Part shown: positions 44,817-52,527 of the stretch, piece by piece | Layout of the letters: every line of letters starts with the position of its first letter | Numbering within the stretch: position 1 is the first letter of the stretch | DNA from: Trueperaceae bacterium | GTDB taxonomy: Bacteria; Deinococcota; Deinococci; Deinococcales; Trueperaceae | Assembly: GCA_965213705.1 (NCBI GenBank) | Contig: OZ243913.1 | Location: 3,712,001 to 3,776,000, forward strand | Direction of reading: 5' to 3' | Length of the DNA: 64,000 nt | The notes under the pieces: generated by a model | What the model was told of the DNA's origin: nothing | Seen by the model: only the letters and a program-made list of their open reading frames with translations | Database searches by the model: none | Made by a program: the position numbers and the translations under genes

Positions 44817-45590
44817 TCAATACTGTCCCAACAACCCCCGGTTCATCGCCCGCCGCTCGGCGAGCTTGTACAGCAAAATCCCAAGCGCGAAGTAAACAAC
44901 CGTGTTGGCGACGAGCAGCGCCCAAGCTGTAGCCGAAAATCCTGCCAGCGTCACGCCTTCGGTCATCGCCGCGCGAATCATGCTTGCGCCGCGCACGACG
45001 GGGAGAGCTTCCAACCACGGCGACAGCGCCACCGGCATCGCCACGAGCGCAAAGAAAATAAACTGCGCGATTTGCAAAAACGCTTGAATCTGCTTGAACA
45101 CCAGCGCCAAACCCGCGACCATAAAACCCACGCCGAGCATACAGACAACCGTGAGGAACAGCAACGGCGCGAGCGTGAGCAAGTCGAAATCGAGCCAAAC
45201 GCCTGCCGTGAGCATGTTGAGGACGAGGACGATGATGATGACGGCGAATTCTACAACCACCCTCCCGACCATGCGCGAGAGCAAAATCTTCCAGGTGCCT
45301 ATTGGCGACATGTAAAGCTGCTCCAAGGTGCCCCGCGTCGCCTCGTTGGTAATCTCCCAGCCGATGCCCTGCATCGCTATGAGCGCCAAGACCCACAGCA
45401 CTATGCTGACGATGAGGTACTCCGAGCTTCCGCCTGTCGTCTCCACCCCGCCGATAACGCGGATGCCGAGGAAAAATAGCAGAAAAATCGCGTAAAAGGT
45501 GATAATTTCACTAATCGTGTTGGGCAAGTAGCGCAGCATTTCGATGCCGACTTTGCGGACGTTGGCCGACAGTACGTTAAGAGACAACAC
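44817..45590 (-). CDS. ABC-2 type permease
   Basis: EATRGTLEQLYMSP, 6 TM. Confidence 0.85.
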   Translation of the reverse strand: MLSLNVLSANVRKVGIEMLRYLPNTISEIITFYAIFLLFFLGIRVIGGVETTGGSSEYLIVSIVLWVLALIAMQGIGWEITNEATRGTLEQLYMSPIGTWKILLSRMVGRVVVEFAVIIIVLVLNMLTAGVWLDFDLLTLAPLLFLTVVCMLGVGFMVAGLALVFKQIQAFLQIAQFIFFALVAMPVALSPWLEALPVVRGASMIRAAMTEGVTLAGFSATAWALLVANTVVYFALGILLYKLAERRAMNRGLLGQY

Positions 45591-46563
45591 GGTTCACCTC
45601 TTGACCATTCATTTCTTCACCGTTCACGATACGCCGGAACACCTGCTCGAAATTGATGGTCGTGCGGTCGATTGACTCGACCGGCGTGCGCGCCTCTTTT
45701 AAGATGTCCATGAGTGTGTATATGTCTTCGTCGTGCTCGAGCGTCACCTTCAGCAGCGGCTTGCCACCTCTGTCCTCCACGGTCACCGCCGGGAACACCT
45801 CCAACTTTTTTGCCTGCGCACCCGTCAGCGCCGCACCGAGGCTCACCTCGTAGGCCCGCGTCTCGAACAGCTTGAGGAGGTTGCCCACCCGGTCGTCTAC
45901 CACAACGCGGCCCGCGTTGATAATCACGGTGCGTTCGCACAGGTCTTGGACAACCGGCATGTCGTGGGTGCTGACGATGATGGTGCGGCCCTCGCGGGCG
46001 ACCTCGCGCAGCAGCTCGCGCACCTCGTAGCCCGTCTCGACGTCCAGCCCGAGGGTGGGCTCGTCGAGCAGGACCAGTTCGGTCCCAGCGAGCATTGCCA
46101 CGGCGATGGCGAGCTTTTGCTGCATCCCGCGCGATAAGTTGTTGACGAGTTCGCCCGCCTTGTCAGCGAGCCGGAACTGGGTTAGAAGTTTGTCGATTTC
46201 AGCCTTGACGCTGCGCCTCGAGCGCCCACGGTTCCCCGCGAAGTAGTCCAGGTTTTCGCGCACGCTCAAGCGCCAATAAAGGTTGCGGTTCCCCTCCAAC
46301 ACCGCGCTGATGTGCCGTAACGCGGCGAGGCGCTGCCGCGTGTTGTCGATGCCGAGAATCTTAACCGTGCCGGCGTCCGGCCGGATGAGGCCGCACATCA
46401 TCTTGATGGTCGTCGTCTTCCCCGCCCCGTTCGGCCCGAGGAGGCCCAAAATTTCGCCGCGCTCGACCCGGAACGACACGCCGTCCACCGCCTTGACGAT
46501 TTCTTTGGACTTGCGCTTTTTGTACGACTTCGCCACCTTGTCGACCTCGACCAGCGTTTCCAC
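45577..46563 (-). CDS. ABC transporter ATP-binding protein
   Basis: GPNGAGKTT, LSRGMQQK, LLDEPTLGLD. Confidence 0.9.
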   Translation of the reverse strand: METLVEVDKVAKSYKKRKSKEIVKAVDGVSFRVERGEILGLLGPNGAGKTTTIKMMCGLIRPDAGTVKILGIDNTRQRLAALRHISAVLEGNRNLYWRLSVRENLDYFAGNRGRSRRSVKAEIDKLLTQFRLADKAGELVNNLSRGMQQKLAIAVAMLAGTELVLLDEPTLGLDVETGYEVRELLREVAREGRTIIVSTHDMPVVQDLCERTVIINAGRVVVDDRVGNLLKLFETRAYEVSLGAALTGAQAKKLEVFPAVTVEDRGGKPLLKVTLEHDEDIYTLMDILKEARTPVESIDRTTINFEQVFRRIVNGEEMNGQEVNRVVS

Positions 46564-46623
46564 CCGTCACCGCCTTAAAGTTTCCGAGGGCTTGTGTTCA
46601 CGAGTTTCAACTTGCTCCCGTCA

Positions 46624-46809
46624 TTAGACCCGCCGGGCCGAAAGTTCGCCTCCTGCTTTTGGCGTAGCCTCGCGCTCGAGTCCGGCCGCCAGCGTCCGCA
46701 AACTCGCGGCGACCCGAGCGCGCCACGATGTTTTCGGCAAGCTGCGGTACACCTCGGCTTCGCGGTAGTAGCGGCTCAGTTTTTCGTGGGCGGTTTGTTT
46801 GTCGGTCAT
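46624..46809 (-). CDS. 61-aa small helical protein (REAE family, see findings)
   Basis: AAGGAG RBS; YYREAEVYR...WRARVAASLRTLAAGLE resembles ORFs 51638-51829 and 51816-52001. Confidence 0.7.
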   Translation of the reverse strand: MTDKQTAHEKLSRYYREAEVYRSLPKTSWRARVAASLRTLAAGLEREATPKAGGELSARRV

Positions 46810-46842
46810 GTCGTTCTCCTTTGCATTCACAATGCGGGTTCT

Positions 46843-46875
46843 CTGCTTCAAATAAAAGAGGGGTTTTTGAAGCAG
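46843..46875. promoter_or_regulatory. Inverted repeat in the divergent promoter region, candidate operator
   Basis: CTGCTTCAAA-N13-TTTGAAGCAG. Confidence 0.55.
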
Positions 46876-46894
46876 CGGTCGTTTACACTCAGAC

Positions 46895-47554
46895 ATGGAA
46901 AAAGTTCTGACGGTGACCAGCAGCGAAGCGGCGGGCTTGTTGACGGATACCTCTCAGTTGCGACTGCTCGAGCCCTTTTTCAAACGCGAGGCCACCCTGA
47001 GCGAGGTTGCCGCCGAACTGGGTGTCAAACTCAATACGCTGCTTTACCGGGTGAACAGGTTCGTCGAGTTGGGTTTGCTTACCGTCGTGCGCGAAGAGCC
47101 ACGTCGGGGCAAGGCTGTCAAGGTTTACCGGGCCAGCGCCGAGGACTTTTTCGTCCCCTTCGAGGTGATGGCAAGCTCGAGCCTAGAGCAACTTTTATTG
47201 GGTATGTTGGGTGACGTGGAAAAGGTGTTTCACCGCGAAGCGGCCAAGGTTTTTCAAGAAACTTTTCAGACGCAGGGTGTTCACATCATCCTCACGCACG
47301 ACCAGCTTTCGGTCGTGCTCGGTGACTACGAGGGAGGCGAGTCGTTTGCCGAGACTTTTTTCGGTCCCGGCTCACCGGCCCTGTTTATCGGGGACGGCAA
47401 CCTCAACCTCGACTTCGAAACGGCCAAGGCCTTTCAAAAAGACATGTTCGACCTCTTCCAACGCTACCGCACCCGCCAAACGCCCAACGCGCAGCTTTAC
47501 GCTTACCGGCTCGGGTTGACGCCGGTGAGTGACGAGTCGCCTGTAAAGGTGTAA
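46895..47554 (+). CDS. Winged-helix (ArsR-like) transcriptional regulator
   Basis: LRLLEPF..EATLSEVAAELGV..NTLLYRV.R..ELGLL...RRGKAVKVYR. Confidence 0.8.
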   Translation: MEKVLTVTSSEAAGLLTDTSQLRLLEPFFKREATLSEVAAELGVKLNTLLYRVNRFVELGLLTVVREEPRRGKAVKVYRASAEDFFVPFEVMASSSLEQLLLGMLGDVEKVFHREAAKVFQETFQTQGVHIILTHDQLSVVLGDYEGGESFAETFFGPGSPALFIGDGNLNLDFETAKAFQKDMFDLFQRYRTRQTPNAQLYAYRLGLTPVSDESPVKV

Positions 47555-47612: not shown

Positions 47613-47948
47613 TTAGGGATTCGTGCGAAGCAACTTGATGACGGCTTCCACGACGTCGTTTGTCACCACAGGCTTCAAACTACCCACCTGCGCTGCGATG
47701 AGCTGTTCGTTGGCTGTAAAAAGCTTGCCTGGGCGAGCGTAGCTGGTGCGCTGCAAGCTTCCTCGGCTGAAACTCTTATCCGTCAGGACGACGGCTTCGG
47801 GGTCGGCGTAGGGATTGCTGGTGATTTGGCACAACAGGTAGTCTCCGCGTCCGGCATCCGCCAACACCGCGGCGGGCCGCAGTTTTGAACGGGAAAGGTC
47901 GGAGAACGGAAAGAGGACGAGGACTACGCCTCTTGCAAGTGCTGCCAC
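47613..47948 (-). CDS. MazF/PemK family toxin
   Basis: RGVVLVLFPFSDLSRSKLRPA, CQITS. Confidence 0.88.
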   Translation of the reverse strand: MAALARGVVLVLFPFSDLSRSKLRPAAVLADAGRGDYLLCQITSNPYADPEAVVLTDKSFSRGSLQRTSYARPGKLFTANEQLIAAQVGSLKPVVTNDVVEAVIKLLRTNP

Positions 47949-48136
47949 GCCTCGTCTTCCTCGGGACGGTTCCAGTCGGACAGAGCCGCCTCGCTGAGCA
48001 AGGCTGTTTCACCGGCCGCCTCGAGCACAGTATCAACGACAACCACAACCCGGTGTTTGCCCGGCGGCAGCTTGTCGGGCAACTTCACAACCAGCTCGCC
48101 GTCTTCGGAAATCGTGCCGATGGTGTAGGTGGTCAC
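47924..48136 (-). CDS. Cognate antitoxin
   Basis: C-terminal LLSEAALSDWNRPEEDEAWQHL; overlaps the toxin start. Confidence 0.8.
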   Translation of the reverse strand: MTTYTIGTISEDGELVVKLPDKLPPGKHRVVVVVDTVLEAAGETALLSEAALSDWNRPEEDEAWQHLQEA

Positions 48137-48197
48137 GAGTTGAGTTTAGCACGCGGGGGTTTGGGGGCTCGAGCCTTTCTGAGTGCGAATACCACCT

Positions 48198-48644
48198 TCA
48201 AATCAACTTCGCCGCCTTCAAGTCGGACGGGTGCAGGGCAGGCAACCCGAGGGCTCGAGTCACCCGCAAAAGGTCTTTATCTTGAGTAATCAAACAGTCC
48301 GCTCCGCTTGTGTAGAGCAAATCCAGCAAGTACCAGTCCTTACGGTCCGGCAAACTGGGCCAGTCGAAAAAGGCCACGGGTGCAGTGTACTCGCCGAGTT
48401 GAAGCAAGTCGACGGCTATCTCGAAGGCCAGAGCAGGTGTCAGGCCCAAGGCGATGATTTTCGGGTAGGTGAGCACAATTTTGAGTTCGCTCAGCATTTC
48501 CTGGCTCAGCACGTAACGGAGTTCGGCGTGGCGGAAGCGCTCGTGCAACTGCCTCAAAATACTCCCCTGTTTGCCCGCCGCACCGTTTAAGATGACGTTC
48601 ACGTCCGCCACCACGCGGGGTAGGGACGACAGGTGAAGCGTCAC
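48198..48644 (-). CDS. PIN-domain putative toxin
   Basis: RVVADVNVI, LSEL, D.KD..LLD, LITQDKDLL. Confidence 0.85.
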   Translation of the reverse strand: MTLHLSSLPRVVADVNVILNGAAGKQGSILRQLHERFRHAELRYVLSQEMLSELKIVLTYPKIIALGLTPALAFEIAVDLLQLGEYTAPVAFFDWPSLPDRKDWYLLDLLYTSGADCLITQDKDLLRVTRALGLPALHPSDLKAAKLI

Positions 48645-49021
48645 TTTGCAAAGCGACGGGCGATGTCTTCGGGAGACAGGGTTTTGCCACTCAACGCCGG
48701 TTCAGCTTTTTGGTCTTTTGCCCAAACGACCGCTTCGTTTATAAGGGCTTCACGCACCCCATCATCCAAGGGAGCGAACAACGCACCCAAGGCCTCGAGC
48801 CCCGCAGCAATGCCGAACACGGCTCGGGCGTTCTCGGCACCCAGCCAAGCTGCCAAATCCCTTGCCAAAATCCGGTACTGCTTGCGCGCGCCGCCACCCA
48901 ATTCGATAGCGCTCAACTCCCCCGCCGCAATCTTGCGCCGGACGGTTTCAGGAGAAACCCGCAACGCTTCTGCTACCTCGCTGACCGAATAGACAACGGT
49001 GGACAACGCTCGGCTGGTCAT
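48641..49021 (-). CDS. Excisionase-type HTH protein, probable antitoxin
   Basis: YSVSEVAEALRVSPETVRRKIAAGELSA; GTGA overlap with the PIN gene. Confidence 0.8.
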   Translation of the reverse strand: MTSRALSTVVYSVSEVAEALRVSPETVRRKIAAGELSAIELGGGARKQYRILARDLAAWLGAENARAVFGIAAGLEALGALFAPLDDGVREALINEAVVWAKDQKAEPALSGKTLSPEDIARRFAK

Positions 49022-49078
49022 AAACACTGACCTCCCTAACCTATTATGCCATATTAAGCACACAAACGCTCAAAAACA

Positions 49079-51577: not shown

Positions 51578-51616
51578 AAAAAAACACCCGCCGCGCTTTG
51601 ACGCTCACGGCGGGTG
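51578..51616 (-). terminator. Intrinsic terminator closing the small-protein operon
   Basis: On minus: cacccgccg...cggcgggtg-ttttttt. Confidence 0.8.
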
Positions 51617-51637
51617 GTCGGGTTGTTCGTCGTTCAT

Positions 51638-51829
51638 TCAGCGGACGTTCAGGGTGGCGTCAAGCTTCGGCGCGGGCTCGAGCCGCTCGGCCAAGCGGTG
51701 CAAGCCGGCGGCGAAACGGGCGCGAAAGCTGGGGCGCGAGGCGGCGACCAGGTGGTCGCGCGCGGCCTCTTGCCGGTACTGCTCTACGCGCGCGGCGGCT
51801 TGTCTATAAACGACGTCATGTACGAACAT
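51638..51829 (-). CDS. 63-aa small protein (REAE family)
   Basis: GAGG RBS; RVEQYRQEAA...SFRARFAAGLHRLAERLEP. Confidence 0.7.
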   Translation of the reverse strand: MFVHDVVYRQAAARVEQYRQEAARDHLVAASRPSFRARFAAGLHRLAERLEPAPKLDATLNVR

Positions 51830-52001
51830 GGCGGCCTCTAGTTTCTCCTCGAACGGCGTCGGGCTCGACGAACTCGGCAACGCTTGTCAAGAAACGGGCG
51901 AAGCTGTGTCTGAGGCTCGGGCTGAGGCGCCTCACCTCGGCTTCTCGGTGGAAGCGGGCAACACGCTCTTCAGCCTGCGCGGCGGTTATTTCGTTGAACA
52001 T
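51816..52001 (-). CDS. 61-aa small protein (REAE family)
   Basis: AAGGAG RBS; RVARFHREAEVRR...SLRHSFARFLTSVAEFVEP. Confidence 0.7.
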   Translation of the reverse strand: MFNEITAAQAEERVARFHREAEVRRLSPSLRHSFARFLTSVAEFVEPDAVRGETRGRHVRT

Positions 52002-52054
52002 ACTTTCTCCTTGTGGGCCGAACCGCCGCGCTGCTACGCTGTACATGTGTTCGC

Positions 52055-52195
52055 TCAGCGGTTGGTCCAGTGTTTGAGGTGCTTGGGTTGGCGCTCGACG
52101 TCCGGGTAGGTGGTCACCAGACGGTTTTGCCAGTTGATGCGCCGCAGGTCCGTCATGCGGTCTTTGGCGATTTGCAGGGCAAAGGTGTTTAACAT
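52055..52195 (-). CDS. 46-aa small protein MLNTFALQIAKDRMTDLRRINWQNRLVTTYPDVERQPKHLKHWTNR
   Basis: Strong AAGGAGG RBS; too short for the ORF track. Confidence 0.6.
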   Translation of the reverse strand: MLNTFALQIAKDRMTDLRRINWQNRLVTTYPDVERQPKHLKHWTNR

Positions 52196-52241
52196 GCTGT
52201 CCTCCTTTCTTTGGCTTGAAAACGGGGTTTAATGGGGCGTT

Positions 52242-52268
52242 AAAAAACCCGGCGTTGTCGGCGCCGGG
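52242..52268 (-). terminator. Attenuator-type terminator upstream of the small ORFs
   Basis: On minus: cccggcg-ccgacaa-cgccggg-tttttt. Confidence 0.75.
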
Positions 52269-52290
52269 GAGTCGTTGCGGGTTGCAGAGC

Positions 52291-52404
52291 TTAGCGCTCT
52301 AGCTCCCACCAACTGTCCCCTGCAGGCGCAAGGATGTCCGCACTGCAACCGCGAACTGACAAGCGTTCGGTTTGTTGCGATAGGCTTTGCTGCATCGGAG
52401 TCAT
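52291..52404 (-). CDS. Candidate leader peptide (37 aa, ends SWWELER)
   Basis: ATG after GAGAGGCAGG; lies between the promoter and the terminator. Confidence 0.5.
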   Translation of the reverse strand: MTPMQQSLSQQTERLSVRGCSADILAPAGDSWWELER

Positions 52405-52448
52405 CTGCGCACCTGCCTCTCTCGCCCGGGTTGGGCGGTTACTTGATT

Positions 52449-52477
52449 ATGATAGCAGAGATATGCCGAATATTCAA
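52449..52477 (-). promoter_or_regulatory. Sigma70 promoter of the leader/small-protein unit
   Basis: TTGAAT-N17-TATCAT with TG extended -10. Confidence 0.65.
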
Positions 52478-52527
52478 GTGTATATTCACACGCTATCCGA
52501 ACCTTCTCAGCAGGCTTAAAATGCTCT

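Follow-up and report, generated by a model that had tools for sequence, protein, structure and literature searches.

A candidate translation-coupled transcription attenuator in front of three small genes in a Trueperaceae genome

Why should a short leader reading frame and a transcription terminator stand in front of three genes that each code for a protein of no more than 63 residues? This question is raised by a locus on the minus strand of a stretch of 64,000 nucleotides (nt) from a Trueperaceae bacterium (phylum Deinococcota; GenBank assembly GCA_965213705.1, contig OZ243913.1, positions 3,712,001 to 3,776,000), which is called the window here and whose numbering is used throughout. We propose that a promoter, an open reading frame lying upstream (uORF), a competing hairpin and a terminator together constitute a translation-coupled transcription attenuator of the three small genes, and we give this reading a probability of about two in three. 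A sequence-only reading of the window had already described the promoter, the uORF, the terminator with its U6 tract, the three open reading frames (ORFs) and a second terminator, and all of them lie on the minus strand at the positions it gave; the conservation of the unit in the family, a direct repeat in the promoter, a hairpin over the end of the first gene and a linkage to an ABC-2 exporter had escaped it.

The unit begins with a sigma-70-type promoter, TTGAAT-N17-TATCAT with an extended -10 TG (52477-52449; family consensus TTGCAT...TGCTAnnnT), which is the sole promoter-like site within 3 kb (shuffle mean 0.2). It is followed, right after the predicted start site at about 52443, by a 5'-end hairpin (52437-52423), an extended Shine-Dalgarno (SD) sequence, AGGNAGGTG (52418-52410), and a uORF of 37 codons that ends in GDSWWELER (52404-52291). 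The predicted antiterminator is a long hairpin whose apical loop contains the stop codon of the uORF (52329-52261, based on folding and on a swap test described below), and it competes with the intrinsic terminator T1, a 7-base-pair all-GC stem (52268-52248) with a U6 tract (in full 52268-52242). The regulated genes are ORF1, coding for a basic protein of 46 amino acids (52195-52055), ORF2, coding for a two-helix protein of 61 amino acids (52001-51816), and its paralogue ORF3, which codes for 63 amino acids and overlaps the end of ORF2 (51829-51638). The operon terminator T2 (51616-51578; -22.9 kcal/mol) is absent from the list of a simple terminator scan and is supported by its folding z-score of -2.9.

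The attenuator layout at T1 exceeds chance expectation in its own genome. Among 405 terminator-like sites, a short SD-led ORF ends 38-65 nt upstream at only two, and of these two only the terminator of this unit has its arm sequestered and the stop codon in the loop. The unit is also, as sequence comparison indicates, real and conserved within Trueperaceae. Our comparison covers 67 ORF1 loci from 19 genera (70 were fetched, and L105-L107 were removed as false), in which the promoter is found at 63 loci and the promoter together with a uORF and its extended SD at 57. The uORF is combined with an intrinsic terminator at 34 loci from 14 genera, 23 loci have a uORF and lack the U tract, and 6 have the promoter and lack the uORF. 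Note that one locus, L042, comes from an unpublished genome (G111) and counts as one in the totals of 67, 57, 34, 28, 24 and 35 given here; it is the outlier in the swap test, and no conclusion hangs on it. Gene callers had been expected to miss the unit, which holds for the uORF, whose sequence is absent from the collection, and does not hold for ORF1, ORF2 and ORF3, which are already in public protein sets.

Comparison of the 57 uORFs indicates that the peptide drifts freely while the start and stop geometry is kept. The length varies between 21 and 62 codons (25-62 in the set used for spacing), and the peptide identity between genera is 0.25 as opposed to 0.23 for shuffled sequences; even in a genome of the same genus the peptide is only 32% identical, with a compensated frameshift. 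No conserved nascent-peptide motif was found between genera, and no amino acid is clearly enriched with respect to the off frames. The two adjacent Trp codons, to which the sequence-only reading had assigned a regulatory role, do not sustain that role: WW is found in this genome only (1/57), the same-genus genome has W-L, any Trp occurs in 9/57 uORFs and in the last ten codons of 5/34, and Trp is rarer in frame (0.6%) than off frame (1.1%). The distance from the stop codon to the terminator, on the other hand, is 18-34 nt in 29/34 loci and is unrelated to uORF length (Spearman 0.07). No leader nucleotides besides the SD and the terminator are invariant. In the listed leaders, the stretch from the start site to the uORF SD forms at least one hairpin, and the 5'-end hairpin might serve to stabilise the RNA. 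A peptide motif A-P-x-G, seen in genomes G000 and G001 and in several genera, was considered as a case of protein conservation and rejected, as RNA pairing, both with the terminator arm and with the SD, accounts for it.

The direct repeat G.ATA-N7-G[AC]ATA that overlaps the -35 element (52487-52471) is delineated by its presence and absence across loci: it occurs in 34/34 terminator-bearing loci and in 0/19 loci from g6, g9 and g12, three genera in which the U tract is missing as well. It is present in a single copy in its own genome, and its matches elsewhere in five relatives are not at promoters of related genes; it is not a regulon motif. On this pattern the repeat is likely to be the binding site of a factor.

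Which structures compete in the leader? In the antiterminator, GCGCC/GGGGA (52329-52316) pairs with UCCCC/GGCGC (52270-52261), whereby codons 26-30 cover the entire 5' arm of the terminator. In this genome the antiterminator has -37.5 kcal/mol (z-score -2.7) and the terminator fold -36.3 kcal/mol. The pairing of GUUGGUG and GGAG with the terminator region that had been proposed earlier can be drawn, but at -24.4 kcal/mol it is 13 kcal/mol worse than the best antiterminator. In the family, the paired region consists of the last 5-12 codons of the uORF and the 5' arm of the terminator. The arm is sequestered by uORF codons above the shuffle mean in 33/34 loci and 13/14 genera, and the two competing folds differ by at most 3 kcal/mol in 30/34 loci. 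In a swap test the own halves of a leader outpair the mean cross-genus chimera in 27/28 loci (six of the 34, near-duplicate or truncated, were left out), and in the terminator stem 94.9% of the cells are paired, with compensatory changes at two pairs (26 of the 34 leaders aligned, eight left out). From these comparisons between loci, the uORF end and the terminator 5' arm have co-evolved pairing; this is the part of the leader for which the expected conservation in relatives is found, as opposed to the peptide and its WW.

The uORF stop codon lies in the hairpin loop in 24/34 loci as compared to 210/600 (35%) of ordinary gene stops; an earlier null expectation of 6.7 out of 34 was too lenient and was replaced by these ordinary stops. 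A side observation concerns locus L061 (genome G110), where a TGG-to-TAG change with respect to G002 shortens the uORF and the former stop position is still at the apex; the stop is therefore off the hairpin apex, which makes this locus a natural test variant.

The effect of a ribosome was modelled by equilibrium folding with the ribosome as an unpaired block of 28 nt. In this genome the predicted probability of the terminator is 0.23 for the RNA alone; a ribosome at codons 7-18 mostly leaves it at 0.2-0.3, and an A site on codons 26-37 raises it to 0.88-0.94, in line with what the sequence-only reading had anticipated for this folding comparison. In genome G001 it rises from 0.02 for the RNA alone to about 0.9 once a ribosome occupies the last codons. 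The family means for the whole leader (34 loci) are 0.47 without a ribosome, 0.49 with a ribosome in mid-uORF and 0.80 on the last codons, with values above 0.8 on the last codons in 25/34 loci. Kinetics would favour the antiterminator beyond this equilibrium estimate, because the antiterminator is transcribed first. A ribosome at the uORF start was tried as a second trigger of termination and rejected: the probability is 0.93 here, but the effect is not general (up in 6/34 loci, down in 12/34).

We envisage the following mechanism, in which the layout, the drift, the spacing and the co-evolved pairing come from sequence comparison, and the folds and the ribosome effect are predicted. The untranslated RNA would fold into the long hairpin that occupies the terminator arm, often with the stop codon in the loop. 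A polymerase-coupled ribosome passing the last codons would unzip the antiterminator, the terminator would form and the RNA would end at 52247-52242. If no ribosome starts, or if one stalls ahead of roughly codon 25, the hairpin would persist and ORF1-3 would be transcribed. The input would be general translation efficiency, i.e. ribosome-targeting antibiotics or a shortage of charged tRNA or ribosomes, and not tryptophan; Trp starvation would not induce the genes. The inverted logic, in which a ribosome at the last codons causes termination and no ribosome or an upstream stall allows read-through, had been put forward from the letters of the window, and both the comparison and the folding models now back it. 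The output would comprise ORF1, the helical ORF2 and ORF3 and, in several genera, an ABC-2 exporter, and might help against translation stress. Judging by analogy and by the gene neighbourhood, this output is likely part of a response to antibiotics or translation stress.

The exporter is found in the neighbourhood of the unit. The gene of its ATPase follows the unit directly in g6, g20 and g33, whereas in g24 and g35 an HTH_20 gene precedes it. In the window the orthologous ATPase is 56% identical and lies 5.5 kb away, past an inserted xanthine-dehydrogenase-type gene and others. In 24 of the 35 genomes that have both genes, representing 7 genera (hand count), the orthologous ATPase gene shares the strand of ORF1 and lies downstream of it at a distance of at most 7 kb; the other 11 are mostly fragmented assemblies. 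No trp, pyrimidine or amino-acid genes were found among the neighbours examined.

Several points weigh against the attenuator as just described. Firstly, the antiterminator duplex beats shuffles at p<0.05 in just 11/34 single loci, stop codons sit in the loop only some two times as often as in ordinary genes and are enriched there in 9/14 genera, and loci of the same genus are not independent. Secondly, the bare RNA has a terminator probability below 0.5 in just 16/34 loci, i.e. the terminator wins without a ribosome in about half of them, and the gain caused by the ribosome exceeds 0.05 in just 20/34. In this genome, moreover, the terminator becomes the best fold if a shortened window including the U tract is folded, and a ribosome exactly at the stop codon leaves the probability at 0.23 with the 28-nt footprint, as the model permits pairing across the ribosome; with a 34-nt footprint the value is 0.80. 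Thirdly, the 23 uORF loci without a U tract and the 6 loci without a uORF imply that the switch is dispensable. Finally, the link to stress is based on analogy and gene neighbourhood alone.

What, then, is being regulated? A profile built from 46 ORF1 sequences was searched in 102 Trueperaceae genomes and in 198 further ones, which belong to four other families within the phylum. It gave raw matches in 61/102 and 3/198 genomes; one match inside (G128) and the three outside (G193, G215, G294) were dropped as lying in non-coding or overlapping frames, which leaves 60/102 and 0/198. Among 1.84 billion representative sequences the profile finds 59 matches, 57 of them 40-75 residues long and two long and spurious. 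A scan of metagenomes for close relatives yielded four partial matches, on which nothing here relies. The N-terminal half of the protein is variable in the 168 distinct sequences, and the C-terminal motif L-R-R-A-G-Y-x-D-x-E-R-x-P-R-x3-H-W-A-N-R is near-invariant; in its tail, Y-x-D-x-E-R-x-P-R-x3-H-W-x-N-R, nine fixed positions are 92-100% conserved. Identity is 0.42 between genera and 93% to the same-genus genome. The family has a mean net charge of +6 and no cysteines. The AlphaFold model has a helix at residues 2-29 and a low-confidence tail; the models of ORF1 and of ORF2/3 consist of one or two helices (predicted template modelling scores 0.42 and 0.38). Searches of Rfam, Pfam, NCBIfam and PDB sequences with the unit and its small proteins gave nothing significant: the Rfam scan of the unit had no match at the gathering score (best E 1.5), and the uORF and ORF1-3 had none at the Pfam cut-off, with DUF1127 in particular matching 0/46 ORF1 and 0/27 ORF2/3 members. 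The ESM Atlas returned only clusters of hypothetical proteins with scores up to 0.91. No WhiB match and no Cys motif was found in ORF1, and the idea that it is a WhiB7-like activator with a regulon was abandoned, since the promoter motif was not found at other promoters. In a comparison of the ORF1 and ORF2 profiles only the N-terminal helix aligns (probability 31.6), which we regard as a lead only.

Stand-alone ORF1 genes (a sub-lineage of g12, and g13) retain the motif and have no co-oriented gene downstream, and the ORF1 codons for E, P, D and G show synonymous variation, so it is likely that ORF1 acts in trans. Other stand-alone paralogues (L200-L206, L082, L102, L104) carry a basic extension of 13-25 residues after W-x-N; they are mostly convergent with an EamA-like gene and have a long structured leader in which no uORF is called. 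At L208 (genome G139, contig C393) ORF1 forms a tandem pair, one copy with and one without the attenuator, followed in order by ORF2, a helix-turn-helix (HTH) gene, an ORF2 paralogue and the ABC ATPase; this arrangement is probably near the ancestral layout. Only one ORF1 carries a species name, WP_013179048.1 of Truepera radiovictrix; its locus has neither uORF nor terminator, a possible reason for the switch having escaped notice. One record out of 32 (L183) is labelled Tessaracoccus, has a typical g12-type locus and is probably a mis-binned contig, and there is one weak, partial ORF1 match in a Spirochaetaceae record.

A second hairpin comprises the last four ORF1 codons and the gap between ORF1 and ORF2 (52069-52014). 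It is weak here (z-score -0.4) and recurrent in the family, with pairing above the shuffle mean in 38 of the 53 loci included (14 of the 67, without a called next gene, were left out). The synonymous Ala codon co-varies with the hairpin, -15.1 vs -13.2 kcal/mol in the GCC class and -15.7 vs -12.4 kcal/mol in the GCG class; in the Thr-codon class, which includes this genome, the pairing at the ORF1 end is poorer than with the alternatives. A modelled ribosome at the ORF1 stop makes the ribosome binding site of ORF2 harder to open in 24/53 loci and easier in 5/53, and leaves it unchanged here. The features examined for ORF1 as an arrest peptide are its invariant last 20 residues, its fixed stop and the hairpin toward the next ribosome binding site. 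A purely cis role is disfavoured by the stand-alone and C-terminally extended copies, which keep the motif, and by the lack of an effect on the binding site here. A bolder reading combines both aspects: ORF1 would be a Trueperaceae-specific stress factor that acts on the ribosome (rescue, protection or hibernation) and docks by its invariant tail, and its synthesis would be controlled by two translation sensors in tandem: transcription would be gated by the uORF attenuator, and translation of ORF2 and of the exporter genes by the last codons of ORF1. We consider this doubtful. If true, it would amount to a feedback loop without WhiB7, through which stalled translation induces its own remedy.

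An improbable alternative accepts the same switch and assigns it another signal, namely the coupling between RNA polymerase and ribosome, or a narrow cue such as the nucleoside triphosphate level, pausing, or one amino acid in one lineage. The logic would resemble that of pyrBI. The geometry indeed needs only a ribosome close behind the polymerase, and the spacing is fixed. Also, the response of whiB7 varies with uORF composition (PMC10274678). However, no single amino acid stands out in the uORFs, and the downstream neighbours examined contain the ABC-2 exporter rather than pyrimidine or amino-acid genes. It is improbable, too, that the terminated leader of about 200 nt is itself the product, a small RNA or a dual-function RNA, with the genes receiving constitutive leaky read-through. 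The 5' hairpin, the strong terminator and the loci in which the terminator wins unaided would suit such an RNA, but the leader sequence and its peptide drift freely, uORF codons and terminator arm have co-evolved, and the terminator-less genera retain promoter, uORF and ORF1. We give slightly less credit to an antiterminator controlled by a ligand or a protein (a riboswitch, a T-box, or an RNA-binding protein such as ORF1), in which the uORF would be incidental. Such control would be in keeping with the bistable folds and the basic character of ORF1, yet Rfam models have no match at the gathering score here or in 12 relatives, the leader has no invariant nucleotides outside SD and terminator, and the extended SD, the open frame and the stop position are retained in 57 loci. 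The least credible candidate is a Trp-sensing attenuator, classical or inverted, with a stall at W32-W33 as its signal: the tandem Trp codons do lie within the antiterminator hairpin of this genome, but they are not kept in the family, a ribosome at W32/W33 gives the same terminator probability (0.94) as at the neighbouring codons, and there is no trp gene among the neighbours examined.

The loci that keep the uORF and have lost the intrinsic terminator (g6, g9, g12 and g33; L085-L103, L067-L084, L075-L088) show a stronger pairing of uORF codons with the SD of the uORF itself. This anti-SD pairing, which involves codons 14-25 or so, is above the shuffle mean in 20/23 terminator-less loci (p<0.05 in 11/23) and in 30/34 terminator-bearing loci (p<0.05 in 3/34); in the window the segment of codons 25-28 (52331-52322) is a weakly supported candidate partner of either the SD or the terminator arm. 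The leaders of g6, g9, g12 and g33 are possibly a Rho-dependent or a translational variant. A signature of Rho sites was sought in these genera and discarded, the C excess after the stop being no greater than at the terminator loci.

As to the surroundings, in many genera (L060, L108, L050, L116, L131 and others) prolyl-tRNA synthetase stands just upstream of the unit, whether a small unknown gene accompanies it or not, and in this genome the unit has been relocated beside 3-methyladenine glycosylase. The exporter module of the window (44817-47554, 4-7 kb downstream) consists of an HTH_20 regulator (46895-47554, plus strand) and, divergent from it on the minus strand, an ORF2 paralogue (46809-46624), the ABC ATPase (46563-45577) and an ABC-2 permease (45590-44817). 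The gap between the regulator and the ORF2 paralogue contains an inverted repeat, CTGCTTCAAA...TTTGAAGCAG, which is likely to be an operator. Two small gene pairs (47613-49063) separate the xanthine-dehydrogenase-type gene from the HTH gene, and we take them to resemble toxin-antitoxin modules of the PemK/MazF-like and PIN-like kinds.

ORF2 and ORF3 belong to an unnamed two-helix family that occurs in 56/151 genomes of the phylum and recurs beside several kinds of regulators. At the 18 outside loci inspected, the family member is at or near the front of an operon, with SHOCT-like/DUF2089 or BTAD genes, and no attenuator of the present kind was seen in the 330 nt upstream. Similar AT-rich promoter sequences precede these DUF2089/SHOCT-like and BTAD operons in other families of the phylum (L141-L164). 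A fourth paralogue (L167, genome G000, C1:433076-433222, minus strand) heads an operon behind an AT-rich promoter region, and the gene after it resembles the SHOCT-like proteins that follow the family in the outside loci. DUF2089 contexts have been tied to envelope stress (PMC11237479).

If the attenuator reading is correct, the unit would be a sequence-independent, whiB7-like attenuator responding to translation stress in Deinococcota that was apparently built independently, and the unnamed 46-residue protein with the near-invariant tail would likely be a factor of the translation-stress or antibiotic response. A known principle of regulation would act here on a family of small proteins that has no match in the libraries searched. 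The family offers natural variants for comparison, i.e. the full switch (34 loci), loci that keep the uORF and have no intrinsic terminator (23), loci with no ORF in the leader (6) and the stand-alone ORF1. The unit is compact, and one reporter suffices for testing.

It is instructive to compare the unit with known leaders. The duf1127-1 leader of Sinorhizobium (PMC12218461) is similar in that a uORF serves to monitor how efficiently translation runs and governs a small Arg-rich protein of unknown function, and in that its C-rich codons can pair with the ribosome binding site of the uORF. It is different in being Rho-dependent, while 34 loci here have an intrinsic terminator, and the proteins here have no DUF1127 match; the 23 terminator-less loci may resemble it, given their anti-SD pairing and the presence of Rho. 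Both vmlR of Bacillus (PMC9226507) and rli53-lmo0919 of Listeria (PMC11550727) share the series of uORF, antiterminator and terminator that gates an antibiotic-response gene. However, vmlR, which controls an ABC-F protein, has a three-codon uORF, an anti-antiterminator and a stall at the start region (PMC9226507), whereas the present uORFs have 21-62 codons, a sensitive zone at the 3' end and a novel small protein as the first gene. Amino-acid attenuators have been predicted in Deinococcus deserti (PMC4007540). With classical trpL-type attenuators the unit shares the leader ORF, the antiterminator and the terminator, but its control codons are not conserved, a ribosome that occupies its 3' codons would promote termination, and no biosynthetic genes follow. 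Arrest-peptide leaders of the TnaC/ErmCL type have a conserved nascent-peptide motif in the uORF, unlike the leaders described here. We found no description of this element in the literature: the main text of PMC11109978 does not name Truepera, Deinococcus or Thermus, and a listing in its supplement or in subscription journals remains possible.

The most instructive counterpart is whiB7/wblC of Actinomycetota, where complete translation of the uORF leads to an intrinsic terminator and impaired translation to an antiterminator and read-through (PMC10274678, PMC11550727). There are several similarities. Firstly, the leader uORF is variable in length and sequence (57/67 loci here) and the regulated gene is small. 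Secondly, an intrinsic terminator is located between the uORF and the first gene (34 loci, with a covarying stem). Thirdly, the antiterminator is formed from the uORF's 3' end, excludes the terminator and is blocked by the ribosome, here in silico and with a clear switch in about 20/34 loci. There is even an AT-rich element just upstream of -35, as in wblC (WblC motif GAAAWY, PMC7157823), but the element found here is a direct repeat with a 12-bp period that occurs once per genome and is not a regulon motif. Further differences are the phylum, the lack of detectable homology (ORF1 has neither cysteines nor a WhiB match), the shorter uORF with its stop at the antiterminator apex, and the second hairpin over the ORF1 end. 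Since it has no WhiB protein and no regulon, the unit is not a member of the whiB7/wblC group; it is a separate unit that works like the whiB7/wblC attenuator.

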